DNA from: Nitrososphaerota archaeon
GTDB taxonomy: Archaea > Thermoproteota > Nitrososphaeria > Nitrososphaerales > UBA57
Direction: 5' to 3'
NCBI GenBank assembly: GCA_002713205.1
Contig: PAVW01000013.1
Span: 30,001-62,000 of the forward strand
DNA: 32,000 nucleotides
Numbering within the stretch: position 1 is the first letter of the stretch; each line of letters starts with the position of its first letter. The notes under the pieces are model-generated. The model did no database searches. It saw nothing but the letters and a program-made list of their open reading frames with translations, and was not told the origin of the DNA. Below, one piece after another: positions 1-21,034 of this stretch. Both the position numbers and the translations under genes were made by a program.

Positions 1-2
1 AA

Positions 3-1340
3 GTATTAGTAAGCGGAGCCAGTGGATTCATTGGAAAGAAGCTTGTAGAACGTCTATTAAAATCAAACATATCAGTTAGGGCAATTTCTCGAAATATAAA
101 AAATCTTTCAGAATTAAAACACGATAATTTAGAGAAAATGGAAATAAATGCATTAAACTACAATGAATTAGTAAATGCATTAAATGGAATTGATGTAGCA
201 TATTTTCTAATTCACTCCATGGAAGGTGAATCAAATAATTGGACAAAATTCATTGAATTAGATAAAAAAATTGCAAAAAATTTTGCAATGGCTGCCACAA
301 AAAACAATGTAAAAAGAATAATCTATCTAAGTGGACTTGTCAGTATTCCAGACAGGGAAATGTCAAAACATATGGCAAGTAGGAAAGAAGTTGGCGAGAT
401 ATTAAAGACATCAAAAGCTAAGGTTACAATTTTTCGAGCATCAGTAATAATAGGAAACGGAAGTGGAGGATTTAAAATGATGCATTACTTGGTTGAAAGA
501 TTACCTATAATGATATGTCCAAGATGGGTACTAACAAAATTACAACCAATATTTGTCGATGATGTAATATCATATCTTTTTGAAAGTCTATTTAAAAGAG
601 AAACCGAAGGAAAAATGTTTGATGTGGGAGGCCCTGATACAATACCATACAAAGATCTGATGAAATTGTATGCTAAAAAAAATAATAAAACAATACGAAT
701 GATAATAATTCCATTTTTGAGTCTAAGATTAACATCCTATTGGGTTGACTTGATAACCCCAATGAAAAAGTCACTCACCAGGCCTTTAGTAGAAGGATTA
801 AAAAATGAATCTGTAATAACGGAGAATTCAATTAAAAAAATCATACCATTGAAATTGAAAGGAGTAGATCAATCATTGGATATTGCAATAGGTACGCAGA
901 TACAGAACCAGAAACATACTGCAAGAAAAGAAATTCTATTATCATATTTGCTAATTTTATTAGGAATTACAGGTGCTGCGCATTATTGGGTAGATGAAAG
1001 AATAATGTCAATGCATCTTCTGGGACATATAAGTACAGGAATCTGGTTCTTATTGTTATTAGTTGGTTATTTTTTTATAAAGAAAGGAGCTCGACTTGGA
1101 GCACTATTGGCAGGGATTGTTGGTTGGACTGCTGCATTGTTTTTGTTAATCGATAGCATGTATTTAATTTCTTATTTGCCAAAAATTGGATCTTATACTG
1201 TAAGTAAAGGAATAGCAATTCTAGGTAATTATCCAGATGCAAATACTGTTTTATTGAATATAATGGGTTTGTTTGTAATTGCAATATTACTAGTTGTAGC
1301 ACATTTTACATTTTATGATAAAAATAAAAACGTAAAATAA
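3..1340 (+). CDS. NAD(P)-binding Rossmann-fold protein (NmrA/atypical-SDR-like) fused to a C-terminal multi-helix membrane domain; 5' end cut by the window
   Basis: Frame 3 is open from the window edge and reads VLVSGASGFIGKKLVERLL (GxxGxxG dinucleotide-binding motif) upstream of the tracked ORF 138-1340. The last ~130 aa contain four hydrophobic helices (ILLSYLLILLGITGAAHYW, GIWFLLLLVGYFFI, LLAGIVGWTAALFLLI, GLFVIAILLVVAHFTF). Confidence 0.8.
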   Translation, partial: VLVSGASGFIGKKLVERLLKSNISVRAISRNIKNLSELKHDNLEKMEINALNYNELVNALNGIDVAYFLIHSMEGESNNWTKFIELDKKIAKNFAMAATKNNVKRIIYLSGLVSIPDREMSKHMASRKEVGEILKTSKAKVTIFRASVIIGNGSGGFKMMHYLVERLPIMICPRWVLTKLQPIFVDDVISYLFESLFKRETEGKMFDVGGPDTIPYKDLMKLYAKKNNKTIRMIIIPFLSLRLTSYWVDLITPMKKSLTRPLVEGLKNESVITENSIKKIIPLKLKGVDQSLDIAIGTQIQNQKHTARKEILLSYLLILLGITGAAHYWVDERIMSMHLLGHISTGIWFLLLLVGYFFIKKGARLGALLAGIVGWTAALFLLIDSMYLISYLPKIGSYTVSKGIAILGNYPDANTVLLNIMGLFVIAILLVVAHFTFYDKNKNVK

Positions 1341-1393: not shown

Positions 1394-1969
1394 ATGATTG
1401 GGAAAATTCAAAGGATATCGGGCAATGTTAACAACTTTCCCACATACACTACACAAATAATGAATCTGGCAAACCAGAATGCCAAAGGAACAAGGCCTAA
1501 AGTAGTTGGACAGCTAACTGATTTAATTCAAGAATGTCCATATAATGAACACAAAAAATGGAAAGAATGGTATCTTAACGAACAGCCCAATGCAATAGAC
1601 AATGCAACCCAGAAAGTTCTTGATGGGGTTGAAAAGCTAAAAGATGGAATTAATAAAATAGATGAAAATATGGTCCGATCTTGGGTAAAAGAATTAGTTA
1701 TAGATAAGACTTTCATTGGTTTAAGATTACAAGAAGTAATATTAATAAAATTCTCAGAGATGTTGAAGACTAAGTATCGTTTAGCAACACCTGAACAGGA
1801 AAGCAAAGGTATAGATGGCTTTTTAGGAGATGTTCCTGTTTCGATAAAACCAGTTACGTATAAAATTAAGAAGTCGTTGCACGAAGATATAGATGTTAAA
1901 ATGATTTTTTACGATAAAAAGAATGATGAAATTATTATTTCTGATGAATGTATAAATCAATTTTATTAA
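1394..1969 (+). CDS. Putative type II restriction endonuclease (possibly MjaI-like family; family assignment from memory only)
   Basis: A 191-aa ORF with an ATG start, convergent with and overlapping the stop of the adjacent DNA methyltransferase. The C-terminal half has a nuclease-like segment, EQESKGIDGFLGDVPVSIKP (D ... S-x-K, a possible PD-(D/E)xK variant). No other family is recognisable. Confidence 0.55.
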   Translation: MIGKIQRISGNVNNFPTYTTQIMNLANQNAKGTRPKVVGQLTDLIQECPYNEHKKWKEWYLNEQPNAIDNATQKVLDGVEKLKDGINKIDENMVRSWVKELVIDKTFIGLRLQEVILIKFSEMLKTKYRLATPEQESKGIDGFLGDVPVSIKPVTYKIKKSLHEDIDVKMIFYDKKNDEIIISDECINQFY

Positions 1970-3066
1970 GCGTATTCAATCTCGAATATGTTATCCTTAA
2001 TTTTGCTAAATGTCTTTACCATGGGTATGACCATTCTTGTTTCTTGTCTTGTCATTACTGGAAATTTATATCTTTCATTAAAGTAACTTAGTTTTCCGTT
2101 TTCTTTTTCTCTTTTTTTAACGAAATCTAGATGTTGTTTAATTCTTGTATTGTTATATCCGTTTGCTAATTCTAAAAGATTATCCATACGTAGATTTATT
2201 ATTTCCATGAAATTCGAATCTATCTCATATCCAATGCTGTTCCGTCCAGATGCCATAGCTCCAAGGGTAGTGGTACTCGTTCCCAAATATGGATCTAATA
2301 CTACATCGCCCTGGACCGAAAACATGGTTATTAATCTATACGCTAACTCGAAGGGATAAGCAGCACTTCTTTCTCTAATGTTTTTATGGTTTAGTTTCTG
2401 TCTGTCACCCATTAAGCCTTCCCAAATGTCCGAAAACCATTTATTTCGTTCTTCCCAAAAAAAAGCACTTCTGTGTCTATTCGATTTTTCTAATTCGGTG
2501 TTAAACTCTCTTTTGGCCCCCTTTCTTAAAATTAAAATGTATTCATGTTCTAAAGTTACATAAGCTCCCACTGGCAACATCCCAGAACCCATAAATTTGT
2601 TCGGTTTATTAGACTGCTTTCTCCAAAGAATGTCGGGTAAAACATGGAACCCTAATTCTGTGCAAAATGATAATATTCGTGCGTGATTTGAATATAATTT
2701 AAAGGAATTATCTATTTTTCTGGTTGCATCACCAATGTTAATACAAGCAATACACCCAGGCTCTAAAACCCTATAAACTTCTTTCCAGACTTTATCTAGT
2801 TCTTGATGCATTAATTCAAAGGCCGAATCATCATCATAATCTGCAAGGGCTTTTTCTATATCTTTGTTCTGTTCTGAAAACATCTCATCCCACATCTCTA
2901 TCATGGGATATGGTGGAGATGTAACAACAAATTGAATAGAATCATTGTCTATATCATTCATAATTCTACTATCGTCTATGATTATTTTGTGTGATGTTTT
3001 GACACTCCCACTATTGTTTTCCAGTGAATTATTTACATAATAATCTATACTATGACTCTCTTCCAT
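1966..3066 (-). CDS. DNA methyltransferase, beta-class amino-MTase (N4-cytosine/N6-adenine family; the SPPY motif suggests N4-cytosine)
   Basis: Catalytic motif IV, FVVTSPPYP, lies near the N-terminus. The AdoMet motif I, VLDPYLGTSTTTLGA, lies near the C-terminus. This IV...I order is the beta-class arrangement. 366 aa, ATG start. Confidence 0.9.
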   Translation of the reverse strand: MEESHSIDYYVNNSLENNSGSVKTSHKIIIDDSRIMNDIDNDSIQFVVTSPPYPMIEMWDEMFSEQNKDIEKALADYDDDSAFELMHQELDKVWKEVYRVLEPGCIACINIGDATRKIDNSFKLYSNHARILSFCTELGFHVLPDILWRKQSNKPNKFMGSGMLPVGAYVTLEHEYILILRKGAKREFNTELEKSNRHRSAFFWEERNKWFSDIWEGLMGDRQKLNHKNIRERSAAYPFELAYRLITMFSVQGDVVLDPYLGTSTTTLGAMASGRNSIGYEIDSNFMEIINLRMDNLLELANGYNNTRIKQHLDFVKKREKENGKLSYFNERYKFPVMTRQETRMVIPMVKTFSKIKDNIFEIEYA

Positions 3067-3333
3067 CGTTCTGACTCCTTTTTCTTTGGCTTAACAACAA
3101 TAATGAAATCCTTTTCCTCGTCATCTTATCTTCCAAGCTAAATAATCTCCCTTCTCAAGTTCAAACTGTTTAATAATACAAAGGGCATGGTAGTCCTGTT
3201 ACACACTTTTTGTTTGTTTTATTCAGAATTATAGTCTGTCCATTAACCATGTTTAATACTATGATTGTCTTTTATATGAATGAAATCATAATTAAGAAAA
3301 ATATGGGATTAGAAAAAACAAGAGAGAAGAATA

Positions 3334-4188
3334 ATGGTATATATTCGAAATAAGCAAGTAAAAGGAAAAAATTATGCATATCTAGTTCGTAGTGTTTGGA
3401 ACAAAGACAAAAAATCCACTAGTCAACAGACAATAAAATATTTGGGAAGATCATCGAAAGTGACGATAGATAATATTCCTGTAAGATTTCGGAATAATCC
3501 TAATGTAATCAAATTCATAGTTAGAAAGAAACACATACAACATGAAGATTTATCAGAATTAATTTATGCAACACAAAAAGAAATCTTAATTAAATTATCA
3601 GAATCAGTGACAGTTGATTATACTCGGTTATATGAACAATATAAAAAAAATTTTTCCACTGTAGAATTTTTTGACAAGATAATTAAACCGATTCTCTATG
3701 ATGTAGGAGACCGTTGGAAACAAAATAAATTACTCATTGGAACTGAGCATGTAATTAGTAACAGAATTAATACAGTTATTAAACAAACAATAACTCATAG
3801 AAAAAAAAGAACAAATTATAAAATTTTGATTTGTAATCCTACTGGTGAAAGACACAACATAGCGTGTAATATATTAGAATCAGTATTAATCAACAATGGT
3901 TTCAATGTTTTTAATATTTCACCATCAACTCCAAGTGAAGATGTATTACAATACATAGATGAGATAAAACCGAACTTAATATTGATATCAATAACCTTAC
4001 CCAATAACATTAAAGCGGGAATTAATTTGGTGGAAAGAACAAGTAATTCATGTAAAATACCTATAATAGTAGGTGGGCAAGCAATTAATTCTAAAAATTC
4101 AAATAAATTTTTATCAGCAACAGTAATGGATTCAAATAACTCATTTAACCAAATTGTGAAAAAAATAACAATGATACAAAAAAGATGA
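3334..4188 (+). CDS. Cobalamin (B12)-binding domain protein with a CarH-like helical-bundle + Rossmann architecture and a basic N-terminal putative DNA-binding module
   Basis: FFDKIIKPILYDVGDRWKQNKLLIGTEHVISNR matches a B12-binding_2-type bundle with W-x9-EH. KILICNPTGERHNIACNILESVLINNGFNVFNIS...LILISITL...IPIIVGGQAI matches the B12-binding Rossmann domain with (D/E)xHxx(G->A). The N-terminus is MVYIRNKQVKGKNYAYLVRSVWNKDKKSTSQQTIKYLGR. Confidence 0.75.
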   Translation: MVYIRNKQVKGKNYAYLVRSVWNKDKKSTSQQTIKYLGRSSKVTIDNIPVRFRNNPNVIKFIVRKKHIQHEDLSELIYATQKEILIKLSESVTVDYTRLYEQYKKNFSTVEFFDKIIKPILYDVGDRWKQNKLLIGTEHVISNRINTVIKQTITHRKKRTNYKILICNPTGERHNIACNILESVLINNGFNVFNISPSTPSEDVLQYIDEIKPNLILISITLPNNIKAGINLVERTSNSCKIPIIVGGQAINSKNSNKFLSATVMDSNNSFNQIVKKITMIQKR

Positions 4189-4344
4189 TGGGGACGGCAG
4201 GATTTGAACCCACGATCTCCCGGTCACTGCTGCTCCAAAGGTGCATCATCCGTTATGTCAGTTACCTAATTATACTATTAGCTTCTGGAGCCGTTAGCGG
4301 CACAATAATGTGCTGACGCCATAACCGAGCTAGGCTACGTCCCC
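4189..4344 (-). tRNA. tRNA-Trp (anticodon CCA) with two introns: 21 nt at 4294-4314 (position 28/29) and 60 nt at 4225-4284 (position 37/38). No encoded CCA.
   Basis: The reverse complement reads GGGGACG UA GCCU AGCUCGGUUA UGGC G UC[21 nt]CGG CUCCAG[60 nt]A CCGGG AGAUC GUGGG UUCAAAU CCUGC CGUCCCC A. The spliced product is a 75-nt cloverleaf with a 7-bp acceptor stem, anticodon stem UCCGG/CCGGG, loop CUCCAGA (anticodon at 4286-4288) and T-loop UUCAAAU. Intron 1 forms a bulge-helix-bulge whose predicted cuts fall exactly at the exon junctions. Confidence 0.8.
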
Positions 4345-4413
4345 TGTTATTTGAAATATATATCCAATATTTGAATGGTAATATATTTCAATAATTATTT
4401 ATAACATGTATTT

Positions 4414-5016
4414 ATGACAAGTTTCGAATTCAAACCACTTTCACGTTCTTTTTACGATTCAAGTACAGTACTAGTAGCAAAAAAATTACTAGGTAAATTA
4501 ATTATCAGGAAGCTAAATGGACGGATTATAAGTGGAAGAATAGTGGAAACGGAAGCTTATACATCAGGTAAACATGATGCTGCAAGTCATGCATGTAAAG
4601 GTATAACTGAAAGAAACAAAGTCATGTTTGGTAAAAATGGCATTTCTTACGTTTATTTTACATATGGAATGTATTTCATGTTTAATGTAGTAGCAAAGAA
4701 AAAAACAGAAGATGCAGGAGCTGTGCTAATACGTGCATTAGAACCAATTAATGGCATTAAAATAATGGAATTAAATAGACATGTAAAAAATAAATTAAAT
4801 ATAACTAATGGTCCAGGTAAACTTACAAAAGCGCTTGTAATTGATAAGAAATTCAACGGTATAGATATGACAAAAAAAGGGAAATTATATATCACAAACT
4901 TTGAACGAAGAAGAGAGGAAATATCAGCTTCTACAAGAGTTGGAATATCATCTGCTATGGATAAAAAATGGAGATTTTACTTGAAAGGAAACAAATTCGT
5001 GTCAAAAAAGGACTGA
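4414..5016 (+). CDS. mpg: DNA-3-methyladenine (alkylpurine) glycosylase, Mpg/AAG family
   Basis: FYDSSTVLVAKKLLGKLIIRK...GRIVETEAYTSGKHDAASHACKGITERNKVMFGKNGISYVYFTYGMYFMFNVV is the characteristic N-terminal core of the AAG/Mpg family. 200 aa, ATG start. Confidence 0.9.
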   Translation: MTSFEFKPLSRSFYDSSTVLVAKKLLGKLIIRKLNGRIISGRIVETEAYTSGKHDAASHACKGITERNKVMFGKNGISYVYFTYGMYFMFNVVAKKKTEDAGAVLIRALEPINGIKIMELNRHVKNKLNITNGPGKLTKALVIDKKFNGIDMTKKGKLYITNFERRREEISASTRVGISSAMDKKWRFYLKGNKFVSKKD

Positions 5017-5142
5017 AAACAAGAACATCATGAGTAATTAGTATAAAAATCAAAATTGGCAATCGATATAGAACAATAAATTATTAACTTAGGAAAAGAC
5101 AAACAATAAAGTTAATTTACATCCTTTTTCTATACGTTAATG

Positions 5143-5260
5143 TTGCCGGCCATAGCAATGGTGTTCCACCTGGTCCCATTCCGAACCCAGAAGTTAAGCC
5201 CATTGACGCTGTTGTGTTAGTTAGGTCCGAAAGGTCTTGCGAAGCAATAGTGCCGGCACA
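5143..5260 (+). rRNA. rrf: 5S ribosomal RNA (orphan, not linked to 16S/23S in this window); ends +/- 3 nt
   Basis: GCCGGCCAUAGCAAUGGUGUUCCACCUGGUCCCAUUCCGAACCCAGAAGUUAAGCCCAUUG contains the universal 5S loop C/helix III motif CCGAAC...GAAGUUAAGC. The terminal helix I pairs UGCCGGC (5144-5150) with GCCGGCA (5252-5258). It is a local G+C-rich island followed by T-runs. Confidence 0.9.
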
Positions 5261-5316
5261 TTTAATATTTAACAAACCTTATTTTCGAGTATTAATTAAT
5301 TTATAATCTATAACAA

Positions 5317-6462
5317 GTGATTAATTTGGAACTATTATTAATATTAGGTGGAGTAGGTAATGCATTTGGAGATAATCCATGGCTCAACAATCCAGTAATT
5401 AGTATAATGATTTTTTATCTTCCTTTAGCTCTTTTGATTTTATATGGTCAAAAAATTCAATCATGGATGATGTTAAATGACATATCAAAATCAATTGGTA
5501 AATTAAAAGAAATGAAAGAAAAAAGCAGAGACGAGGCTATAAATCACATCACTGAAGGAGTAGATAACAAAGATAACGTAATTAAGAAGATTGATTCATT
5601 TTTAGAATATTTTACAATTATGCCAGTTGATTTAGATCCAGCAGGTGTTGTCAACAAATTAGATCATTTAATGACAACAAGAGATGAACGAATGAGAATA
5701 GAAATAAAAAATATGTTGCCTGAATTAGATTCAATAAAAGCTAATTCTGTAGAAAATATTATTGAGATTGCTACATCGTATAATTTTGTTTATAAAATTG
5801 CTAGGCATTTTTACTTGATAGGAAAAAAATCAAGCAATATTCTAATCTTAGCACAATTACAAATGATTATGCCTTTTATATTAATGCAGGCAGATGCGTT
5901 AACAAAAGCTATGAGTACATTCAGGGAAAGTCAACCGATTGGAGATTCAATAGGTCCGATGATTGTAGGTAAATTAATGTTAGAGAAAGAAAAACATGAA
6001 ATAGCTAGAGACACAATTTATGCTGAATCAAATATCGAAAATCGGAAAGTCTATTTAATTACTGCAAAAGGTCCAGGAGGTACTGTAGGTCAACCAGGAA
6101 ATGCATTAAAAAATATCATTGAGAAAGGAACTAAGCCTTCTATTTTGATAATGATTGATGCTGCATTAAGATTAGAGGGAGAAAAAACTGGAGAGATAGC
6201 AGAAGGAATAGGAGCAGCTATAGGCGGGATAGGTGTAGATCGATTTAAGATAGAAGAAATAGCTACGGAAAATAACATACCAATTTATGCAATAGTCATA
6301 AAACAAACTTTGGTAGAGGCAATATCAATTATGAGAAAAGAAATAGCTGAAACTACAGAACCTGTACACGATATTTTGAATCGATTAATAATGGAAAGAA
6401 CCAAAGAAGGCGATTCAGTGATAATAATCGGAGTAGGTAATACAGCAGGAGTGGGTCAATAG
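5317..6462 (+). CDS. Conserved archaeal membrane-anchored protein of unknown function (resembles the DUF1512 family from memory)
   Basis: A 381-aa ORF with a GTG start. It has N-terminal hydrophobic helices (ISIMIFYLPLALLILYG). The C-terminal globular part has a Gly-rich segment, GPGGTVGQPGNALKNIIEKGTKPSILIMIDAALRLEGEKTGEIAEGIGAAIGGIGVD. Its stop codon directly abuts the next ATG. Confidence 0.75.
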   Translation: MINLELLLILGGVGNAFGDNPWLNNPVISIMIFYLPLALLILYGQKIQSWMMLNDISKSIGKLKEMKEKSRDEAINHITEGVDNKDNVIKKIDSFLEYFTIMPVDLDPAGVVNKLDHLMTTRDERMRIEIKNMLPELDSIKANSVENIIEIATSYNFVYKIARHFYLIGKKSSNILILAQLQMIMPFILMQADALTKAMSTFRESQPIGDSIGPMIVGKLMLEKEKHEIARDTIYAESNIENRKVYLITAKGPGGTVGQPGNALKNIIEKGTKPSILIMIDAALRLEGEKTGEIAEGIGAAIGGIGVDRFKIEEIATENNIPIYAIVIKQTLVEAISIMRKEIAETTEPVHDILNRLIMERTKEGDSVIIIGVGNTAGVGQ

Positions 6463-6882
6463 ATGTCAATGCCGCTTATGGGTGTACCTGACAAAAAACA
6501 ACGGAAATTCAATATATATACTATAGAGGAATGCGGTCATGGTTCAAAGGACAAAAATGGAAAATTTGAAAAAGGTACAAAGTCCGAAGGAGAATTTAAG
6601 TTTGAAAAAGGTACAAAGTACGAAGGAGAATTTAAGGATGGGAAAAAACATGGTCAGGGAATATTAAAAGATTCAGACGGTAAAATTATCTATGAAGGAG
6701 AATGGAAGGATGACAAACCAGATGGTAAAGGAACAATAACAATTCCAGATAGTGCGTGTAAAAAATCAATTAAAAGAAAATTTGTAAAGGGAGATTATGT
6801 TCATAAAATTATTGATGAATGTAAAGAATGCAAGAATAACAAGATTATAACAATGATATTTGCAGAAGAAGAAAAAAGCTAG
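6463..6882 (+). CDS. MORN-repeat protein with flanking Cys pairs
   Basis: The repeats YEGEFKDGKKHGQGILKDSDGKIIYEGEWKDDKPDGKGTIT fit the MORN pattern Y-x-G-x-(W/F)-x-x-G-x-x-x-G-x-G. There is a C-terminal CKECK (CxxC). The start ATG immediately follows the upstream TAG (caaTAGATGtca). Confidence 0.85.
   Translation: MSMPLMGVPDKKQRKFNIYTIEECGHGSKDKNGKFEKGTKSEGEFKFEKGTKYEGEFKDGKKHGQGILKDSDGKIIYEGEWKDDKPDGKGTITIPDSACKKSIKRKFVKGDYVHKIIDECKECKNNKIITMIFAEEEKS
6565..6636 (+). repeat. In-frame 2 x 36 bp tandem duplication inside the MORN gene (35/36 identical)
   Basis: tttgaaaaaggtacaaagtCcgaaggagaatttaag (6565-6600) is repeated at 6601-6636 with one C->A change. The copies encode FEKGTKSEGEFK / FEKGTKYEGEFK. 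Confidence 0.9.
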
Positions 6883-13639: not shown

Positions 13640-14491
13640 TTGAATCGAGATGAATTATCCAGAGCATTAGAATTACGTTCAAAGGATTATAAAGAAAGAT
13701 TAGATGATAAATGGGAAAAAGTTCTTGAGAGTCACAAGTGGTCAAGTTTTTATGAACCGTTAAGATATGCAACTAAAGACGGTAAAAGAATTCGACCTTT
13801 GATTCTTATGTTAGCTGGTGAAAGTGTAGGAATTCCTGGAGGTAAAACTGACTTAGCTGCTGTAGCGGTAGAATTATTGCATACGGAATCAATAATTCAT
13901 GATGACATAATAGATAACCAAATACAAAGACGAAACAAGGATTCGTTTCATCTTCGATATGGTAATCATACAGCCTTATTAACTGCTGATTTTGTTTTTG
14001 GTATTATTCTCGAAATAGCATCACGATATAATGATCCACGTATAGCAAAAGAACTATCTTTAGCTGCATTAAAAATGTGTGAAGGGCAACAGAAGGAATT
14101 AAATGTTAATTCTAGAAGAATCCAATGGATAGAATATCTCACTGTAATTAGTCAAAAGACAGCATCACTATTTCAAACATCTTCAAAGTTAGGTGCTATT
14201 ATTGGTGGTGGAAATGAAAGCGAGATTAATGCATTAGCGAATTATGGCCTAAATTTAGGCATAGCATACCAAATCCATGATGATATACTTGATTGGGAAG
14301 AAGATGATAAATTTTTAGAATCAACACAAGATAAAAGGATACAAGAAAACATTGTAAGTTTAAAAAAACTCAGAGAGCACAGCACATTATACTCAGAAAA
14401 TGCAAAAAGACAATTAGATAAAATTAAAGAATCAGATTATAAAGAATTTTTATATTATCTGGCTGATTTTACAGTTAAACGAGATTATTGA
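13640..14491 (+). CDS. Polyprenyl diphosphate synthase (geranylgeranyl diphosphate synthase-like, trans-IPPS)
   Basis: The first Asp-rich motif is LLHTESIIHDDIID and the second is YQIHDDILD, with GKRIRP upstream. TTG start at 13640. The in-frame stop at 13613 and the absence of an upstream ATG/GTG force a non-ATG start. Confidence 0.9.
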   Translation: MNRDELSRALELRSKDYKERLDDKWEKVLESHKWSSFYEPLRYATKDGKRIRPLILMLAGESVGIPGGKTDLAAVAVELLHTESIIHDDIIDNQIQRRNKDSFHLRYGNHTALLTADFVFGIILEIASRYNDPRIAKELSLAALKMCEGQQKELNVNSRRIQWIEYLTVISQKTASLFQTSSKLGAIIGGGNESEINALANYGLNLGIAYQIHDDILDWEEDDKFLESTQDKRIQENIVSLKKLREHSTLYSENAKRQLDKIKESDYKEFLYYLADFTVKRDY

Positions 14492-15927
14492 TTAAAAAAA
14501 GAATTTGTGATTTCTTGTGACAAGTCATAAATCAAATTCGGAAACAAACCTGTTATTATAATAACTATTGTAGCAAATAACAGAACAGATTTGAATGACA
14601 TAGGTTCTATTATATTACTGACAGTCTTTGGTTCGTCCATATACATTCTTTTTATTACAAGAAGGTAGTAAGCAACAGAAATTGCACTATTAATCAAACC
14701 AATAAAAGCTAACCAAGCATAACCCCCATCAACAGCAGCACCGAATAATACTAATTTACTCCAAAATCCGTTCAAAGGAGGAATACCAGCAAGGCCCAAT
14801 AAAGAAATTGCTAAGCAAAATGAAGTTATTGGCATTATTTTAGAAAGACCTTGATAGGATGTTAGATCAGTACTAGAAGTTTTTAATCGAACTAAAGCGG
14901 CTGCAATAAAAGCAGTGGCTTGTAATATAGCATGATTTAAAGAATGATATAATAAACCGATCAAGCCCAAATCAGAATATGGTAGAACTACTAAACCTAT
15001 CAACAAATAACCTGCTTGAGCTATACTAGAATATGCCAGAAGTCTGGTTATTGATTTTTGAGTTAAAGCTGCTAAATTACCTAAACTCATTGTAATTACA
15101 GCTACTATAGCAAGTGCAAATGACAAATCAAAGGAGAATAAAGGGAAAATAACAGCGAATATTCTTATAGCAGCTGCAAAACCAGCTTTCTTAGTAGCTG
15201 CAGAGAGTAAGGCACTGATTGGAGTGGGTGAACCTTGGTATGTATCAGGAATCCACATATGAAATGGCACGATTGATAATTTTAATCCAAGACCAGCTAG
15301 CAATGCTATAGTTGCAAACATAACCAATGGAATTAGATTCGAATTGAGACTTGCAAGATTATCTGCTATTACATATAAATTGGTAGAACCAACTAAACCG
15401 AAAATTAATGAAATGCCATAAAGTAAAATTCCTGATGAAAGTGCTCCAAGAACGAAGAATTTTACTGCGCCTTCATTTGATAGCTTATCTTGTTTATTAA
15501 AACCAGCCAGAATAAATGTTGGAAGGCTCATTAGTTCCCAAGCAACAAATATTAGAAGTAAATCTATTGCAAATGAAAGGAGCAACATTCCAATGGATGT
15601 GAAAAGTAGCAGAGAATAATAAATTGCTTCATTACTATGATCTTTTACATAATCAAAGGATGAAATTACTACAAAAAGTGAAACTAGTATCACAATGAAA
15701 CCAAAAAAGGAACCTAAAAGATCAGTTCGAAGTAAATGCGGTAATGTTGATTCTTGTGAAATTAAACCAATTAATGAACCAAAGAGCAATAATAAAGAAA
15801 TTGATAGAGAAATAGCAGTCAAATACCTGATATAACTTATGCCTTTTTTACCGAATAGAATATGTATAATCGGTATAGAAAGTGCAGTAATTGATAATAA
15901 AACTAGTAAAATAATTGGAATATTCAA
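14485..15927 (-). CDS. nuoN: NADH-quinone oxidoreductase (complex I-like) subunit N
   Basis: A 480-aa polytopic antiporter-like protein. LLIFVAWELMSLPTFILAGF is the NuoN/ND2-type motif. It is the last gene of the nuo operon. The TTG start directly follows the nuoM TAA. Confidence 0.9.
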   Translation of the reverse strand: MNIPIILLVLLSITALSIPIIHILFGKKGISYIRYLTAISLSISLLLLFGSLIGLISQESTLPHLLRTDLLGSFFGFIVILVSLFVVISSFDYVKDHSNEAIYYSLLLFTSIGMLLLSFAIDLLLIFVAWELMSLPTFILAGFNKQDKLSNEGAVKFFVLGALSSGILLYGISLIFGLVGSTNLYVIADNLASLNSNLIPLVMFATIALLAGLGLKLSIVPFHMWIPDTYQGSPTPISALLSAATKKAGFAAAIRIFAVIFPLFSFDLSFALAIVAVITMSLGNLAALTQKSITRLLAYSSIAQAGYLLIGLVVLPYSDLGLIGLLYHSLNHAILQATAFIAAALVRLKTSSTDLTSYQGLSKIMPITSFCLAISLLGLAGIPPLNGFWSKLVLFGAAVDGGYAWLAFIGLINSAISVAYYLLVIKRMYMDEPKTVSNIIEPMSFKSVLLFATIVIIITGLFPNLIYDLSQEITNSFFNQ

Positions 15928-17415
15928 TTATGCGACACCACTAGAAATCAAATTCACGTAAACTTCGGCAATAGGATTAGAAACACCAAGGATTAACCAA
16001 GGCACAACTAAAGTCAAAACTAGAGGTATTAAATATAAAACAAGAGTTAAGGTAGAAAAATTACCCAAGTCATGATGACGGATACGAGAAGTAGTTGGAT
16101 CAGACATAACTACTCGCTTTAACATCCATAAGAAATATGCAACTGTAATAACAGGTATAGCAACTATTACAGCATAAATTGGATTCACAGCAATAGCTCC
16201 CACTATAACCATATATTCGCTAAGAAAACTACTGAAAATTGGAAGTGCCATAGCTGCCATAGAACCGAAAACTAAGAGACTGGCAAGTCGAGGACTTGTG
16301 AATTTAAGTCCTTTAATAACAGTAATATCTCTAGTTCCTGAAACTTTATGCAAGTAACCAGATAGCATAAACATCAATCCAACGGCTGCTGCATGTGTAA
16401 ACATTTGAAAAATAGCACCAGATATTCCAAATACTGTCCCAGTAAATGCGCCAAGAATCACAAATCCCATATGATTTACACTTGTAAGGGCAATCATTTT
16501 TTTAATGTCTGTTTGAACTAAAGCTACAAAAGCGCCATAGAACATTGTAATAACACCAATTAAAATAAAGACCCAAGCGTACTGAGCTGAAGCTTCTGGG
16601 AGAAGTCCTATATTAAATCGTAAAAATCCATAACCGCCCATTTTTAAAAGAAGACCTGCCAAAAGAACGCTAATCGGTGCAGGAGCTTCAACATGTGCAT
16701 CAGGTAACCAAGTATGAAATGGAACTATAGGTAATTTAACTCCAAATCCTATTAAGAACAATACCGAAGAAATAATTTGCAATCCTAAAGGAATTCTTCC
16801 AGCAACATCAGTAATATTAAATGAATTAGGGGCGACTGAGAAATAAATTAAGATAAATGCAAACAGCATAAAGATACTACCGACAAATGTGAATAAGAAA
16901 AATTTTATCGCTGCATATTTTCTACGTGGCCCACCCCATATACCAATGAATAAGAACATGGGAATAAGAACAACATCCCAGAAGACATAAAACAGAATCA
17001 TATTCAACGAAGTGAAAACTCCCATTATTGCACCTTGGAAAAGTAATAGAAGCGAATAATACAGAACTTTTCTATCAGAAATTAAATCTCTTGATCCAAT
17101 TACTACTAACAAAGACAACATAGAAGTAATAATTACAAGAGGTGCGCTAAGACCATCCATTGCAACATAATAATCTATTCCAAAATGTCGAATGATAGAA
17201 ATTGGCCCTTCAATAAAATTGTAACTTCCACCCGTTCCATTAACTAAAATTAATCGATATGCATAAAATGATAATAATAATTCAATAAATGAAATTATCG
17301 CTGCATAAATTACAATATATTTTTGAGAAGTTTTAAAAATAAGTGGCATAAGTGAAGCGCCTAAAATTGGCAAAGCAATTAAAACTGAAATTATTGGGAA
17401 ACTAAGCTCTATCAA
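15928..17415 (-). CDS. nuoM: Complex I subunit M (canonical copy)
   Basis: FYVFWDVVLIPMFLFIGIWGGPRR is the NuoM/ND4 signature. HTWLPDAHVEAPAPISVLLAGLLLKMGGYG is also present. 495 aa, TTG start. Confidence 0.9.
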   Translation of the reverse strand: MIELSFPIISVLIALPILGASLMPLIFKTSQKYIVIYAAIISFIELLLSFYAYRLILVNGTGGSYNFIEGPISIIRHFGIDYYVAMDGLSAPLVIITSMLSLLVVIGSRDLISDRKVLYYSLLLLFQGAIMGVFTSLNMILFYVFWDVVLIPMFLFIGIWGGPRRKYAAIKFFLFTFVGSIFMLFAFILIYFSVAPNSFNITDVAGRIPLGLQIISSVLFLIGFGVKLPIVPFHTWLPDAHVEAPAPISVLLAGLLLKMGGYGFLRFNIGLLPEASAQYAWVFILIGVITMFYGAFVALVQTDIKKMIALTSVNHMGFVILGAFTGTVFGISGAIFQMFTHAAAVGLMFMLSGYLHKVSGTRDITVIKGLKFTSPRLASLLVFGSMAAMALPIFSSFLSEYMVIVGAIAVNPIYAVIVAIPVITVAYFLWMLKRVVMSDPTTSRIRHHDLGNFSTLTLVLYLIPLVLTLVVPWLILGVSNPIAEVYVNLISSGVA

Positions 17416-17423
17416 AATATCAC

Positions 17424-19529
17424 CTAACCAAATAACAACAATGTTAACAATATAATTCCTAGTGCAAAGAAGAATACATATTGTTCAGTAATTCCAGTTT
17501 GAATCTTACGAACATTACGAGAAATCAATATATTAAAATTAGCAATTCGAGTTGCAGTGCCGTCAACTATGTATTTATCAAATTTCCCTCCTAAAGTTGA
17601 TAAAATAATAGAAAATTTTGGCACCACTGTATTCAATTTATCAAGAATTCCAACTTCAACATGTTTATGTATTAACTGTGAAAGTTTTAATGAGCCATTA
17701 ATGAATACGATATAATAAAGTGAATTAATATACCACCTATTAACAAAGAATTTTTGCAAAGTTAATAAGCCTGGAATATTTTTTACCGTTTCAATAGGGT
17801 TTAATTTTCCATTAATATAAAATAAATAGCCAGAGCCACAACCAACTAGAACTGCAAGAATAGATGTAGAAACAGCAATTAAATTAATAGAAAACACATG
17901 TTCGTGAATTTCCATACCAACAGCATATTCAAGATGATGTCCCAGTGAATTCGCTAAGAATCCTTCATAAATAGGTCCAGTAAATCCAAGGGCGAGTGTA
18001 AGTATGGCAAGAATAACATATGGTGCATACATTAGAACGGGTGCTTCATGAATATGTTTGCCACTCGACTTTTCTAATTTAGAAAGGTGTCTGCTTTTTT
18101 TCCCGAAAAAGATCATTCCAATCATTCTGAAGCTATAAAACGCAGTCATGATAGCAGTAATACTTGCTAATCCATAAAGTGCTATTAGAGTAAAGGAACT
18201 TTCTACGCCAAGAATTGAAGCTAAGATTGCATCTTTACTCCAGAATCCACTAAGAAGCGGAATGCCTGCTAATGATGCAGCGCCAATTGTCATTGCAATA
18301 AAAGTTAAACGCATTTGTTTACGTAATCCACCCATTTCATTCAGATATTTAGTGTGTGTTTGATGAATTATTGCGCCAGCTCCCATGAATAATGAAGCTT
18401 TAAAAATTGCATGACTGGTCAAATGAAAGAATCCTGCAACATACCCTACAATAAAGTTTGAAGTTAATCCTGCAACACCAAATGCAAGCATCATAAAACC
18501 AATTTGAGATACAGTAGAATAGGCAAGAACTTTTTTCAATTCATTTGATACCATAGCTTGGGACGCAGCTAGAAATGCAGTAATGGCTCCTATCCAAGCT
18601 ACAAATTCGAAGAAGGGCATAATTAGAGAAATATTTTCAACTGCAGTAACAAAAATCGGACCAATACGAGCAATTAAGAATACTCCTGCTTTAACCATTG
18701 TAGCAGCATGAATCAAGGCAGATACAGAAGTTGGGCCGGCCATTGCATCAGGAAGCCATTCCTGTAAAGGAAACTGAGCTGATTTTCCAATTGCGCCACC
18801 AAAAATGAAAAGTGCGACGGGTATCAATAATCCTGACTTTGCTAATTCAACAGCCCAAGTATGAGATTTTGATAATTCCATGAAATCAAATGTTCCTGAG
18901 AAATAGAACAATGTAAGAATTCCAATTAAAAATGATGCGTCGCCAACTCTAGTCATTAAGAAAGCTTTGCTACCAGCATGTGTAGGAGAATAAGCTAACG
19001 GAATTCCCCAAGCTTTCTTTCCTACGGTTCCAACATAATCTTTTTTGTGATCTTTATTCCAGAAGCTAATTAATCCATATGAACATAATCCAACACCTTC
19101 CCAGCCAAAGAATAGTTGAAGAAAATTATCGGAAAATATAATTAATTGCATACTTCCTATGAAAAATACCATTAGGAACCAATATCGGGTCATATTATTT
19201 TCACCTTTCATATAACCCATACTGTAAACCATAATTGAGAATGAAAGCCAACCGACAATATTTGACATTAAAATACTAAGTGGGTCAGCTAAAACTCCTG
19301 CAGTTATATCTAATGCAGAGATCCACATAACTTGATGATGAAATGTTTCACCAGCTAGTGCAATAGGTAGCATTGATGCACAAAGAATTGCAGAAATTAA
19401 TGTAATAAATATCGCATAATAATCTCTAATTTTTTCGCCAATACGTGCAACAATTGGCATTAATAAAGCGCCAAGTATTGGAATGGCAAATACTAACCAT
19501 GGAATTAAATAATTAATTTCAGTTGACAT
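17424..19529 (-). CDS. nuoL: Complex I subunit L, unusually long (701 aa), with an extended C-terminal lateral-helix region
   Basis: NuoL/ND5 motifs FFGWEGVGLCSYGLISFW and QEWLPDAMAGPTSVSALIHAATMVKAGVF. The C-terminal part has WYINSLY...IVDG...KIQTG followed by a final TM helix. The ATG overlaps the upstream TAA by 1 nt. Confidence 0.92.
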   Translation of the reverse strand: MSTEINYLIPWLVFAIPILGALLMPIVARIGEKIRDYYAIFITLISAILCASMLPIALAGETFHHQVMWISALDITAGVLADPLSILMSNIVGWLSFSIMVYSMGYMKGENNMTRYWFLMVFFIGSMQLIIFSDNFLQLFFGWEGVGLCSYGLISFWNKDHKKDYVGTVGKKAWGIPLAYSPTHAGSKAFLMTRVGDASFLIGILTLFYFSGTFDFMELSKSHTWAVELAKSGLLIPVALFIFGGAIGKSAQFPLQEWLPDAMAGPTSVSALIHAATMVKAGVFLIARIGPIFVTAVENISLIMPFFEFVAWIGAITAFLAASQAMVSNELKKVLAYSTVSQIGFMMLAFGVAGLTSNFIVGYVAGFFHLTSHAIFKASLFMGAGAIIHQTHTKYLNEMGGLRKQMRLTFIAMTIGAASLAGIPLLSGFWSKDAILASILGVESSFTLIALYGLASITAIMTAFYSFRMIGMIFFGKKSRHLSKLEKSSGKHIHEAPVLMYAPYVILAILTLALGFTGPIYEGFLANSLGHHLEYAVGMEIHEHVFSINLIAVSTSILAVLVGCGSGYLFYINGKLNPIETVKNIPGLLTLQKFFVNRWYINSLYYIVFINGSLKLSQLIHKHVEVGILDKLNTVVPKFSIILSTLGGKFDKYIVDGTATRIANFNILISRNVRKIQTGITEQYVFFFALGIILLTLLLFG

Positions 19530-21034
19530 TATCCTATACCTCCAAATACATTTTGAAGTAACGGGACTAAATTATCAGTAATAACAGATGGATAGATACC
19601 AATTATGAGAGTTAAGGCAGAAAGAAAGAGCAATGGAATGGTTATATGAAATGATGGATCTTTTATATTTTTAAATTCTGATGGTAGTTCGCCAAAGAAA
19701 ACTTTACGTATAGTAAGTAGAGCATATCCAGCAGTAATTGGCGTACCAGCTAGAGCAATGGCTGTAAGAATAAGTTTACCAGTAGAACCAGTCTCAAGTG
19801 CGCCAGCAAATGAACCTGCAAAAATCATCCACTCAGATTGAAATCCACTTGTAGGTGGAACTCCAACTATTGCAAGAAAACCTATCATTGCTGCAATACC
19901 TGTTATTGGAAGTTTGCTACCAAGTCCTCCGAGTTTTTTTATGCTTCTTACACCACCAGTTTGCATTATGATAGAACCAGCAGCCATGAACAGAAGAGCT
20001 TTTCCTGTTCCATGACTAACATAATGAAACACAGAACCAGTTACACCCAAGTAATAGAGCGAACCCATTCCAAAGATGATATAACCCATTTGACTTACAC
20101 TGGAATAAGCCAATAATCTTTTCAGATCGTCTTGAGCATATGCCATTAAGCCACCATAAATCATTGTCAATAATCCCCACAAACTAATTGCAAATACAAT
20201 AGTTGGATAAATTGAAGGGAGTATAAACAGAAATATTCGTAGAAATGCATATGCACCAATACCAATCATAGCTGGTGAAAGTAAAGCACTTATTGGAGTT
20301 GGTGATTCTGCATGTGCGTATGGTAACCAAACATGAAGTCCTGCAGCAGCTAATTTAGTCAATAATCCAACACTAATTGCAATGCCAACCCAAACGCGTA
20401 GTGAAGAAGGCAATCCACTTTCATTTAAATCAAAAAAGTTGAAACTTCCTCCAAAGAATCCAATTGTTAAAATTCCTCCAAGAAGAAAAATTGCTCCGAC
20501 ATGAGTCCATAAGAAATACATTAATGAAATTTTTTGGCGTTCTCCATAACCAAATTCTGCTATTAAAAAGAATGAAGGAATAAGCATTAGTTCAAAGAAT
20601 ATATAAAATTGGATTAAATTTGTGGCAAGTACAGTTCCAAGCATTCCTGCAGCATAAACAAGATACAAAGCATAATATAATGAAATTTTTCGATTGATGG
20701 TATCACTAATTGCCTTTTTAGAATGAAGATCTTCTTTGATTCTATGGGCCATGTAAGGAATAGAATACATTGCAATAACGGTAGAAAGAATATAGATAAG
20801 TGCTGCAAATGGAAAACTTAATCCGTCAAGAAATAATCCAAATTCGCCAATAGGTTCCCAATTATAGCTTTCTAAGTGTTCTGGGGATGAAAATCCTGAA
20901 TAAAGTAACAAAGACGTGCAATAAAAAAGAATTAGAAATACTAACCATCCTACATTCTTGCCAATTCTTAATCCAATAAAATAAATCAGAGGGGCTAAAA
21001 TTATTGGTAAAAACACGGCTTGTAAAAGTAGCAT
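19529..21034 (-). CDS. nuoM: Additional NuoM-like antiporter subunit (second M copy, divergent)
   Basis: A 501-aa polytopic protein with FYIFFELMLIPSFFLIAEFGYG and HVWLPYAHAESPTPISALLSPAMIGIGAYA (Mrp/NuoM-type). It lies between nuoK and nuoL. Confidence 0.85.
   Translation of the reverse strand: MLLLQAVFLPIILAPLIYFIGLRIGKNVGWLVFLILFYCTSLLLYSGFSSPEHLESYNWEPIGEFGLFLDGLSFPFAALIYILSTVIAMYSIPYMAHRIKEDLHSKKAISDTINRKISLYYALYLVYAAGMLGTVLATNLIQFYIFFELMLIPSFFLIAEFGYGERQKISLMYFLWTHVGAIFLLGGILTIGFFGGSFNFFDLNESGLPSSLRVWVGIAISVGLLTKLAAAGLHVWLPYAHAESPTPISALLSPAMIGIGAYAFLRIFLFILPSIYPTIVFAISLWGLLTMIYGGLMAYAQDDLKRLLAYSSVSQMGYIIFGMGSLYYLGVTGSVFHYVSHGTGKALLFMAAGSIIMQTGGVRSIKKLGGLGSKLPITGIAAMIGFLAIVGVPPTSGFQSEWMIFAGSFAGALETGSTGKLILTAIALAGTPITAGYALLTIRKVFFGELPSEFKNIKDPSFHITIPLLFLSALTLIIGIYPSVITDNLVPLLQNVFGGIG

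Follow-up and report, generated by a model that had tools for sequence, protein, structure and literature searches.

The question raised by this locus is what an ammonia-oxidising archaeon (AOA) does with a protein in which a CarH-type cobalamin sensor follows an N-terminus unrelated to the MerR domain of CarH. The gene, referred to here as the regulator gene, lies on the forward strand of the 32-kb stretch of DNA analysed (the window) at positions 3334–4188, stop codon included, and the ORF listing and the sequence give a product of 284 amino acids with an ATG start and a TGA end. The start codon is fixed in the ortholog alignment by the N-terminal residues MVYIR, which are kept in all orthologs, and every peptide quoted in the first-pass annotation was found in this translation. 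An identical protein is listed by NCBI under a Thaumarchaeota/Nitrososphaerota MAG. A homolog search returned 486 homologs; the family spans at least 208 species, and all 80 loci examined belonged to AOA. Orthologs occur in Nitrosopumilus, Nitrosotenuis, Nitrososphaera and Nitrosocosmicus, and also in soil lineages. Conservation was assessed on a set of 20 orthologs, with identity down to 39% and a mean column identity of 52%. AOA drive nitrification in the sea and in soil. Light inhibits them and thereby affects the places at which nitrite and nitrate arise in the ocean; we know of no light sensor or light-response pathway for these organisms. A search of the literature on CarH, LitR, B12 photoreceptors and cobalamin-binding in combination with Thaumarchaeota, Nitrosopumilus and archaea found no published description of the regulator family, and one supplementary file of the SignatureFinder paper (PMC11796333) names no archaeal members.

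The sensor region consists of a four-helix-bundle cap (B12-binding_2, PF02607; residues 99–152, positions 3628–3789, forward strand), which Pfam matched over residues 99–149 with 23.2 bits against a cutoff of 23.0, and a Rossmann-type B12-binding domain (PF02310; residues 163–251, positions 3820–4086, forward strand), matched with 37.3 bits against a cutoff of 32.1. The cap carries G125-x-x-W128 and E138-H139. W128 is encoded at positions 3715–3717 and E138-H139 at 3745–3750, with a spacer of exactly nine residues, just as the first-pass annotation had read it, and this W-x9-EH segment was placed in the B12-binding_2 bundle by Pfam, by profile search and by predicted fold. The Rossmann domain contains E172-R-H174-N-I-A177 from position 3847 (H174 at 3853–3855), in which H174 is the proposed lower axial cobalt ligand. 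The earlier description of a (D/E)-x-H-x-x-G motif with the His kept and the Gly replaced by Ala was borne out, and the full motif, E172-x-H174-x2-A177-x41-S219-x-T221-x25-G247-G248, fits the classic B12 motif D/ExHx2G/P-x41-SxT/V-x22-27-GG (PMC9304148) at all positions except G/P, where the regulator has Ala and its orthologs have A, G, V or S. Invariant in all 20 orthologs were G125, W128, E138, H139, G171, E172, H174, S219, T221, G247 and G248, so that the Trp, Glu and His of the cap and the lower-ligand His are retained across the four named genera. A light-responsive cobalamin-binding signature, defined with SignatureFinder, comprises the elements GxxW, EH, GxxH and GxxxP (PMC11796333). 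Three of these four are exact in the regulator (G125xxW128, E138H139 and G171xxH174) and invariant in orthologs; the fourth reads S196xxxP200, with S, G or T at the first position in orthologs and P200 invariant.

Comparisons with annotated families and structures were used to place this sensor. The best NCBIfam model was CarH (NF052513), which aligned to the cobalamin part only (residues 104–270 against model positions 107–269 of 274) and scored 53.7 bits against a cutoff of 400, short of a full-length CarH assignment. When the family profile was searched against the PDB, photoreceptors came first (8j2x/8j2w at 1e-19, 8jbs at 9e-18 and 8j2y at 1e-13); methionine synthase (MetH) matched at 4e-13, without the W and EH residues in the printed alignment, and corrinoid proteins at about 2e-12 to 4e-12. 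The AlphaFold2 model of the full-length regulator had a pLDDT of 84, and ranks 1–37 of its Foldseek matches in the PDB were all B12 photoreceptor domains, with TM to target of up to 0.8. By these sequence and model comparisons, the sensor is closer to proven 5'-deoxyadenosylcobalamin (AdoCbl) photoreceptor domains than to methionine synthase or corrinoid proteins. The same data bear on the idea that the protein is a corrinoid carrier for methyl transfer, with an N-terminal module unrelated to DNA. Several members have been named 'methanogenic corrinoid protein MtbC1' by JGI, and NCBIfam corrinoid-protein models do match weakly. These matches, at 30–34 bits, are however far under the model cutoffs of 215–420, photoreceptor domains score better in the profile search, and methyltransferase partner genes are absent from 86 neighbourhoods. 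Together with an N-terminal module common to transposases and nucleases and a conserved operator on the regulator's own promoter (both described below), this leaves a carrier function barely credible. Assignment to the MtbC, MtaC or MttC families was tried and rejected on these bit scores and the lack of cognate methyltransferase neighbours in the 86 loci.

CarH and LitR (from Thermus thermophilus, Myxococcus xanthus and Bacillus megaterium) are MerR-type AdoCbl photoreceptor repressors. The regulator shares with them the succession of a four-helix cap with W-x9-EH and a Rossmann domain with E/DxH...SxT...GG, as well as an overall order in which the DNA-binding domain, here predicted, is N-terminal and the sensor C-terminal. 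The key residues of T. thermophilus CarH (TtCarH) are W131/E141/H142/H177 (PMC11796333), and W128/E138/H139/H174 of the regulator have identical spacing with an offset of 3; the regulator model also matches the CarH structures 5c8d and 5c8a with E ~1e-10 in Foldseek. Unlike CarH, the regulator has Ala in place of the Gly of xHxxG. Unlike TtCarH, in which a His after the Trp forms the bis-His adduct of the light state, it has Lys at this position, which is never His in the 20 orthologs, so the photocycle may differ. In this respect it is similar to CtMerR from Chloracidobacterium thermophilum (8jbs/8jbt), where the residue after the Trp is likewise not His. CtMerR and the photocobilins SasPcob and AbDPcob (8j2w, 8j2x, 8j2y) are the regulator's best matches in sequence and fold, with W, EH and GxxH aligning residue for residue, and they illustrate how such a sensor combines with a range of outputs. 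These proteins are all bacterial, and in place of a beta module they have a MerR HTH, bilin-binding globin or GGDEF output domain. The AerR/PpaA antirepressors also combine a cap with a Rossmann B12-binding domain (the family profile matches 7te2 with E=3e-7); AerR lacks a DNA-binding domain, works through CrtJ and is a more distant match than the CarH-type domains.

In place of the MerR winged helix of CarH and LitR, the regulator begins with a beta-sheet module some 40 residues long. Neither Pfam nor NCBIfam gave a MerR or other HTH match at E<=10, in agreement with the non-MerR scaffold noted in the first-pass annotation. The basic N-terminal region as a whole (residues 1–55, positions 3334–3498, forward strand) comprises antiparallel strands at residues 2–9, 12–23 and 28–39, followed by a conserved I48-P49 turn, and is joined to the sensor by a linker that is helical in the model (residues 56–98, positions 3499–3627, forward strand) and varies more than any other part of the protein. 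Residues 1–39 contain 10 Lys or Arg residues versus a single acidic one. Modelled alone with AlphaFold2 (pLDDT 93.5), the module is predicted to form a basic three-stranded beta-sheet over residues 1–40, and Y14, Y16, L17, V18, S20, W22, Q31, K35, Y36, L37 and G38 are invariant in orthologs. The module had no family match in Pfam, NCBIfam or PHROG and no sequence match in the PDB, and Foldseek found nothing below E=0.27 for its fold in the PDB and nothing below E=0.079 in the viral BFVD. It may resemble the three-stranded DNA-binding sheets of the arm-type or AP2-like kind. A likeness to the N-termini of IS1634-type transposases, proposed in the first-pass annotation, was recovered by a profile of residues 1–64, which matched the N-terminus of protein P0264 (E=5.3e-8 over residues 1–40), and P0264 is itself assigned to the IS1634 family of transposases by NCBIfam model NF033559, on which it scores 215 bits (cutoff 100). 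The pattern K-x-Y-x-Y-L-V...Q...K-Y-L-G is common to both; in the transposase the module precedes the DDE domain and presumably recognises the element ends. The same module is also N-terminal in HNH endonucleases and an AbiEii protein. Because these relatives are fused to proteins that act on DNA (DDE transposase, HNH nucleases, AbiEii), the module is proposed, on sequence and model, to be the DNA-binding domain of the regulator.

The promoters of orthologs provide a candidate binding site. They carry two direct 10-bp repeats, TTAGCACTAG-N9-TTAGCACTAG, spaced 19 bp from start to start and abutting the TATA box; in Nitrosopumilus the layout is TTAGCACTAG-N9-TTAGCACCAG-TTAAATA. The strict 10-mer has a density of 8.9 per kb within 170 bp upstream of the gene versus 0.54 per kb elsewhere, and 41 strict pairs were found in direct orientation at exactly 19 bp. 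Operator pairs scoring >=20 numbered 128 in 633 kb of loci, the null for this score being a maximum of 20.2 in 100 shuffles of 32 kb. Among a further 129 operators from metagenomes, the start codon lies 28–31 nt after the operator in nearly all. No third repeat was present upstream of the operator. TATA boxes in the operator promoters are strong and match the consensus (TTTATATA or TTAAATA); the proximal repeat immediately adjoins the TATA box, at the BRE position, and takes the place of the usual BRE sequence. Each of the four AOA genera has the operator on the regulator promoter, with both orientations represented. In Nitrosopumilus it lies on both of the divergent promoters of the regulator and SDR genes, and it also precedes neighbouring SDR, CrtI-like, TspO and small membrane-protein genes.

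From this co-location we infer that the regulator protein binds the predicted operator, and the conserved two-repeat arrangement on ortholog and neighbour promoters strengthens the reading of the protein as a DNA-binding regulator, itself a prediction. It could instead be that some other factor binds the operator, that the beta module binds an RNA or protein partner, and that gene and repeats coincide through shared regulation. This would suit a module whose fold matches no known DNA-binding fold in the PDB or BFVD and whose profile has, as its sole sub-threshold match among PDB sequences, a dsRNA-binding domain (E=0.17). The operator's presence on the regulator promoter in every one of the four genera regardless of orientation, the DNA-acting partner domains of the module and the suitability of direct repeats for an oligomeric sensor argue against such a coincidence, which we regard as very improbable. 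CarH is said to bind direct repeats that overlap a core promoter element (Jost et al. 2015, PDB 5c8e). The predicted operator of the regulator similarly consists of direct repeats over a core promoter element, and its neighbouring targets likewise include a CrtI-like enzyme. It differs from that of CarH in having two 10-bp repeats 19 bp apart rather than three adjacent 11-bp repeats, and in lying on an archaeal BRE/TATA promoter rather than a sigma-70 -35 region.

The computational observations are the domain identities, ligand-residue conservation, the predicted fold and the operator's occurrence, its geometry and the genes with which it is associated; from this point we infer AdoCbl binding, light as the signal and repression by the regulator. 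The reading we favour, with a probability of roughly 60%, is that the protein is a cobalamin-dependent transcription factor of AOA, most likely an AdoCbl-dependent, light-relieved repressor that works as CarH does through a different DNA-binding domain, without being a member of the CarH family. In the dark, AdoCbl would be sandwiched by the four-helix cap and the Rossmann domain, with W128, E138 and H139 packing on the adenosyl group and H174 serving as the lower cobalt ligand. The AdoCbl-loaded state would favour an oligomer that sets two N-terminal beta-sheet modules on the two 10-bp direct repeats, the promoter-proximal one on the BRE against the TATA box, and binding there would keep TFB and TBP off and so repress transcription. 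Light would then break the Co-C bond, the oligomer would fall apart and the genes would be expressed.

Placement on the BRE is in principle also compatible with activation. A light- or B12-dependent activator bound beside the TATA box would recruit TBP and TFB, or one of the numerous TFB paralogs, to promoters without a normal BRE, consistent with the replacement of the usual BRE sequence by the proximal repeat and with the presence of a TFB paralog gene (cluster c4) within a few kb of the regulator at 21 of 86 loci. By contrast, the operator promoters already possess strong TATA boxes, the proximal repeat covers the BRE itself, as sites of archaeal repressors usually do, and does not lie upstream of it, and the precedent of CarH is repression. 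Activation therefore appears quite unlikely.

For a light-relieved repressor of this kind, the predicted targets, based on the operators that precede them, are the regulator gene itself, an SDR-type membrane protein, a CrtI/HpnE-like flavoenzyme and TspO, along with DUF6789 membrane proteins and a number of zinc-ribbon or small membrane proteins; genes for a c8-like protein and for 66-aa and 78-aa proteins are also preceded by the operator. Among the neighbours, it is the SDR-type membrane protein (cluster c1) that is conserved across clades. Its gene adjoins the regulator gene at 49 of 86 loci, where three relative orientations occur, and is preceded by the operator in 11 Nitrosopumilus loci. 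The window holds the 3' part of c1 (positions 1–1340, forward strand; the 5' end lies beyond the window start), which encodes an SDR/NmrA-type NAD(P)-binding domain, matched by Pfam NAD_binding_10 from profile position 45 onwards, and a C-terminal membrane domain. An adjacent DUF1722 (YbgA family) gene was also noted. The predicted regulon has a flavour of CrtI/HpnE-like oxidoreductase, HpnA-like SDR and TspO; neither a photolyase nor a carotenoid operon appeared among the operator targets. The contig with the TspO target was assigned to AOA solely by its operator, its 28-nt spacing and its GC content (0.32), and at locus L101 the ORFs after TspO were judged Dps-like and Usp-like from reading of the sequence only.

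The composition of this gene set also bears on whether light is the signal. The same protein and operator could make up a light-independent cobalamin sensor that responds to the availability or form of cobalamin (e.g. AdoCbl versus apo) and tunes expression to B12 status in organisms that make and need B12. The conserved B12-binding residues fit such a sensor, and the presence of the gene in soil lineages and Nitrosotenuis, whose habitats are assumed to be largely dark, is a counterpoint to light sensing. To our knowledge, cobalamin riboswitches are not an established regulatory route in these archaea, and Rfam found none in the window. Against this, no gene for cobalamin biosynthesis, salvage or transport or for a B12-dependent enzyme was present among the operator-preceded or neighbouring genes, the nearest relatives in both sequence and fold are photoreceptors and not enzymes or carriers, and the W-x9-EH cap motif has been reported to be crucial for photoreceptor activity (PMC9304148). 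On balance, we consider a light-independent sensor unlikely, if plausible.

We give about even odds to the broader proposal that this is the first transcription factor of the photoreceptor type to be described for this archaeal group, i.e. an AOA light sensor in which a CarH-type sensor is coupled to an uncharacterised beta-sheet DNA-binding fold and controls a light or photo-oxidative-stress regulon (SDR, CrtI-like, TspO and small membrane proteins), whose leaderless genes carry the two-repeat operator over their BRE/TATA. The family is a concrete candidate for an AOA light sensor, with a predicted ligand, operator sequence and target genes. If true, the proposal would extend CarH-type sensing to archaea and to BRE/TATA promoter logic, and provide B12 photobiology with a compact new output domain that is possibly useful in optogenetics. 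The unannotated module that heads IS1634 transposases and some nucleases would, at the same time, gain a probable role in sequence-specific DNA binding and a candidate 10-bp site.

In the window itself, the operator has been lost. No operator pair scored above chance across the 32 kb (best 13.7 versus a mean shuffle maximum of 12.3), whereas in sister strain L089 the position that corresponds to the window's upstream region carries an operator with a score of 22.2. This intergenic region (3067–3333) retains a TATA-like TTTTATAT at 3270–3277 and a decayed proximal half-site CTATGATTGT at 3259–3268, and the distal half-site is absent. Short repeats within 3067–3340 were considered as an operator and set aside as apparent chance matches in AT-rich sequence. 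The regulator gene is separated from its usual upstream partner by a restriction-modification (R-M) cassette (1394–3066), made up of an MjaI-type endonuclease (1394–1969, forward strand; Pfam RE_MjaI, 3.9e-64) and an N6/N4 DNA methylase (1966–3066, reverse strand; Pfam N6_N4_Mtase, 1.3e-40). Similarity between the window and the same-lineage strains L086, L088, L089 and L090 upstream of the gene starts at ~3250; the cassette is absent in L089 and L090, and L086 has the methylase only. The cassette is a strain-specific, strain-variable insertion where the operator is expected, and it has displaced the operator of the window copy, which would thus act only on targets elsewhere and not be autoregulated. 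The R-M system and a DNA-repair glycosylase (methylpurine-DNA glycosylase, 4414–5016) had been singled out as neighbours in the first-pass annotation. Both are present, neither is a conserved partner, and their proximity carries no functional signal.

Across strain variants of the regulator, substitutions cluster at residues 62–116, and one variant carries W128L. Close strains of the window lineage differ by 7 non-synonymous versus 2–3 synonymous changes, numbers too small for interpretation. A tRNA gene downstream was found by Rfam and missed by ARAGORN.

The open reading frame at nt 3334–4188 (+) encodes a 284-residue protein containing every peptide quoted in the first-pass annotation, which had described a W-x9-EH motif plus a lower-ligand-type His on a non-MerR scaffold; all quoted residues and their spacing were recovered. 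W128 (nt 3715–3717, +) lies nine residues before E138-H139 (nt 3745–3750, +), which ends the W-x9-EH motif, and the Rossmann part reads G171-E-R-H174-N-I-A177. The spacing from A177 to S219-I-T221 is exactly 41 residues, with G247-G248 a further 25 residues past T221. The regulator matches the whole classic B12 motif, given as D/ExHx2G/P-x41-SxT/V-x22-27-GG (PMC9304148), its sole departure being Ala at the G/P position, and its four key residues are spaced as are W131, E141, H142 and H177 of Thermus CarH (PMC11796333). Pfam B12-binding_2 was matched barely above its cutoff (residues 99–149, 23.2 bits, cutoff 23.0) and B12-binding more clearly (residues 163–251, 37.3 bits, cutoff 32.1). The top NCBIfam model was the CarH equivalog, covering the cobalamin-binding part only, at 53.7 bits versus a cutoff of 400; at the N-terminus, no MerR or other helix-turn-helix model from Pfam or NCBIfam matched even at E ≤ 10. 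Lacking a MerR domain and falling short of the curated model's cutoff, the protein does not belong to the CarH/LitR family as defined. Identification as a methyltransferase corrinoid protein, a name given in some JGI records, was also excluded, with scores far below cutoffs and no partner genes in 86 neighbourhoods.

When the family profile was compared with all PDB sequences, four experimentally proven B12 photoreceptors ranked first (photocobilins 8j2x and 8j2w, 1e-19; CtMerR 8jbs, 9e-18; 8j2y, 1e-13), ahead of methionine synthase (4e-13), corrinoid proteins (~2e-12 to 4e-12), CarH (1.5e-9) and AerR (3e-7). In the profile alignments, the W, EH and GExH columns of the family match identical residues in the photoreceptors, whereas at these columns methionine synthase lacks both W and EH. 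An AlphaFold2 model built from a 20-sequence alignment (mean pLDDT 84) gave as its first 37 Foldseek PDB matches only cobalamin-binding domains of photocobilin, CtMerR or TtCarH/LitR (E about 1e-11 to 1e-10, TM to target up to 0.8). Three of the four SignatureFinder elements of light-responsive domains (GxxW, EH, GxxH, GxxxP; PMC11796333) are present exactly, the fourth reading SxxxP. In TtCarH, the Trp is followed by a His that takes over as upper ligand in the light-state protein (PMC9304148), whereas the regulator has Lys at this position and its orthologs never His; CtMerR likewise carries a residue other than His (Arg) there. Sequence and model together assign the sensor, as a prediction, to the photoreceptor type.

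The database search returned 486 homologs, nearly all full length, with source names including Thaumarchaeota, Nitrososphaerales, Nitrosotenuis, Nitrosocosmicus and Nitrososphaeraceae; the identical protein, deposited under the label hypothetical, comes from a Thaumarchaeota/Nitrososphaerota MAG. When each species was represented by a single genome, the scan showed relatives in 208 stretches, and all 80 kept were from Nitrososphaeria. The regulator represents a conserved family of ammonia-oxidising archaea. Across 20 aligned members, the most distant at 39% identity (mean column identity 52%), invariant residues comprised G125, W128, E138, H139, G171, E172, H174, S219, T221, G247 and G248 in the sensor, and Y14, Y16, L17, V18, S20, W22, Q31, K35, Y36, L37 and G38 in the N-terminal module. 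Among 21 close strain variants, substitutions were concentrated in the linker (residues 62–116). A protein from a 2.4-kb environmental ENA contig (P0005), 99% identical to that of the window, carries W128L at the otherwise invariant Trp, which may reflect either an error in sequencing or a naturally occurring loss-of-function allele. Searches of openly accessible full-text literature on CarH, LitR, B12 photoreceptor or cobalamin-binding in Thaumarchaeota, Nitrosopumilus and archaea yielded no description of the family.

Modelled alone, residues 1–64 (pLDDT 93.5) form a three-stranded antiparallel sheet (2–9, 12–23, 28–39) followed by a short helix, and residues 1–39 contain ten Lys/Arg against one acidic residue. 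No match to this module was found in Pfam, NCBIfam, PHROGs or PDB sequences, Foldseek against PDB and BFVD gave no significant structural neighbour, and the effector domains of the SignatureFinder survey (HTH, DGC, BBD, GAF and MEDS; PMC11796333) include nothing resembling it. A module profile run against 1.84 billion representative proteins produced 577 hits, among them the family itself. One, P0264, is a 526-aa DDE transposase headed by the module and identified as NCBIfam IS1634 family (215 bits, cutoff 100), bearing out the likeness to IS1634 transposase N-termini proposed in the first-pass annotation. The module also stands at the N-terminus of two HNH endonucleases, an AbiEii toxin-type nucleotidyltransferase and an uncharacterised family of about 170 aa (160–185 aa), and occurs as a tandem double in one 102-aa protein; the module-bearing proteins examined were P0264, P0244, P0222, P0229, P0220, P0224, P0226 and P0242. 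The beta module is mobile between protein families, and its partner domains (transposase, HNH, AbiEii) point to a putative role in DNA binding. The analysis thereby proposes a function for an unannotated module.

The 170 bp upstream of the regulator gene were extracted from 86 loci. In nearly all clades this region contains two direct repeats with the consensus TTAGCACTAG-N9-TTA(G/T/C)CAC(T/C)AG, the second directly against a TATA box (TTTATATA or TTAAATA). The strict 10-mer occurs at 8.9 per kb in upstream regions versus 0.54 per kb in the remaining locus sequence, and 41 neighbouring sites lie at exactly 19 bp in direct orientation, with every other spacing represented at most three times. 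A pair-scoring matrix found 128 pairs scoring at least 20 in 633 kb of loci, and 100 shuffled versions of a 32-kb sequence reached 20.2 at most; no third repeat was found at the operators. An exact-pattern scan of metagenome contigs added 120 loci with 129 operators, nearly all followed by a start codon after 28–31 nt, and operator-preceded genes are therefore predicted to be leaderless. This places the TATA box around −29 to −22 and puts the proximal repeat over the BRE, around −39 to −30. The geometry suggests competition with TFB/TBP, i.e. repression; activation in its place is the less likely reading. The operator of the regulator gene is inverted, yet still abuts the TATA box, in the marine clade to which the window is related. 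Of the 86 loci, 21 have a TFB paralog gene no more than a few kb away from the regulator gene (for example L047 3272–4189, L064 4983–5894, L070 3449–4357 and L075 5255–6238).

The regulator gene is itself operator-preceded in most loci. Further predicted targets include a 450-aa protein joining an SDR/NmrA-type NAD(P)-binding domain to a C-terminal membrane domain (top NCBIfam HpnA, below cutoff), a 448-aa amine-oxidase-type flavoprotein (top named models HpnE and CrtI family, below cutoff), DUF6789 membrane proteins, a protein of ~300 aa that looks secreted, a Pyr_redox_2 enzyme, a nucleotide cyclase and an epimerase with DUF1731. Most frequent in the metagenome loci (L091–L210), at 18 times each, were a 66-aa two-helix membrane protein and a 78-aa cysteine-rich basic protein, neither with a family match, the latter resembling a zinc ribbon. 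TspO/MBR is operator-preceded in one metagenome contig (L101 133–1826, −; GC 0.32), where the next two ORFs, judged by eye from sequence, resemble a Dps/ferritin-like protein and a universal stress protein (Usp).

Of the 86 loci, 49 have the SDR gene next to the regulator gene. The two stand in tandem in Nitrosocosmicus, in tandem but separated by a DUF6789 gene in Nitrososphaeraceae, and divergently in Nitrosopumilus, where each promoter has an operator. In five Nitrosopumilus loci (L023, L037, L051, L078 and L082, about 2400–6250), the regulator is flanked by the divergent HpnA-like SDR gene and a convergent HpnE/CrtI-like flavoprotein gene, each with its own operator, and a DUF1722 (YbgA family) gene is close by. 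The HpnA-like and HpnE/CrtI-like pairing hints at possible light-controlled isoprenoid or lipid modification. Two regulator paralogs are present in several Nitrososphaeraceae genomes (L013/L069, L015/L030, L016/L020 and L060/L077). In three of these four pairs one copy adjoins the SDR gene or its DUF6789 companion and the other has a different context; in L060/L077 the SDR gene is beside L077 only, and L016/L020 says nothing on context, as L016 has only ~200 bp of upstream sequence.

Among the predicted targets no photolyase was seen; in character the set resembles membrane and redox protection and would be consistent with a light or photo-oxidative response. A B12 sensor operating independently of light is the unlikelier reading, since the operator-preceded set contains no genes for cobalamin synthesis, transport or use. 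We put at about 0.85 the probability that the protein is a cobalamin-binding transcription factor recognising the two-repeat operator; that light is its signal and repression its mode of action is favoured with moderate confidence. The original proposal of a light- and/or B12-responsive regulator with a new domain combination is thus supported as far as computation goes. The likeness to CarH extends to an N-terminal DNA-binding domain (putative here), a C-terminal cap-plus-Rossmann AdoCbl-type sensor with the photoreceptor signature, a direct-repeat operator on a core promoter element and a CrtI-like neighbour. Through this family, light sensing in ammonia-oxidising archaea becomes directly approachable by experiment.

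In two sister strains of the window (L089 and L090, protein 87% identical), 197 bp separate the SDR gene from the regulator gene downstream of it, and an operator scoring 22.2 abuts the TATA box TTTATATG. In the window, a restriction-modification cassette of MjaI-type endonuclease and N6/N4 DNA methylase genes (nt 1394–3066) lies between the two genes; a third strain, L086 (regulator 98% identical), has the methylase only, and L089/L090 have neither. This cassette varies between strains (compared over window nt 1394–3066, L086 3818–4915 and L089 3029–3224) and occupies exactly the operator position of the strains that lack it. Similarity between strains starts again at about nt 3250, and the window keeps a TATA-like TTTTATAT (nt 3270–3277) and a decayed proximal half-site CTATGATTGT (nt 3259–3268), the distal half-site being gone. 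No operator pair above chance was found in the entire 32 kb. The coding sequence is intact with every key residue present; the window copy is therefore probably functional and no longer autoregulated, with targets outside the window. The dN/dS of the regulator gene between the window and L089 is 0.36, and the cassette-bearing lineage shows 7 non-synonymous versus 2–3 synonymous differences, too few to interpret.

One base past the regulator stop codon lies a tRNA gene of 156 nt (nt 4189–4344, −; Rfam RF00005, 35.7 bits), long enough for an intron; ARAGORN reported no tRNA in the whole window and thus missed it. A stand-alone 5S rRNA gene (nt 5142–5261, +; RF00001, 84.8 bits) is situated between the methylpurine-DNA glycosylase and DUF1512 genes, and the 52-aa ORF overlapping it (nt 5117–5275, −) is surely spurious. 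After the DUF1512 gene comes a gene for a 139-aa MORN-repeat protein (nt 6463–6882, +), conserved in L086 and L089; MORN-repeat proteins are not known to be common in archaea. Minus-strand ORFs of NADH:quinone oxidoreductase subunit families (Proton_antipo_M twice, NADHdh; nt 14485–25730) suggest a Nuo-type operon. Genes for tRNA synthetases, a cyclophilin, a polyprenyl synthetase, two acyl-CoA dehydrogenases and a thiolase occupy other parts of the window; together with the Nuo-type ORFs they form ordinary core-genome context.
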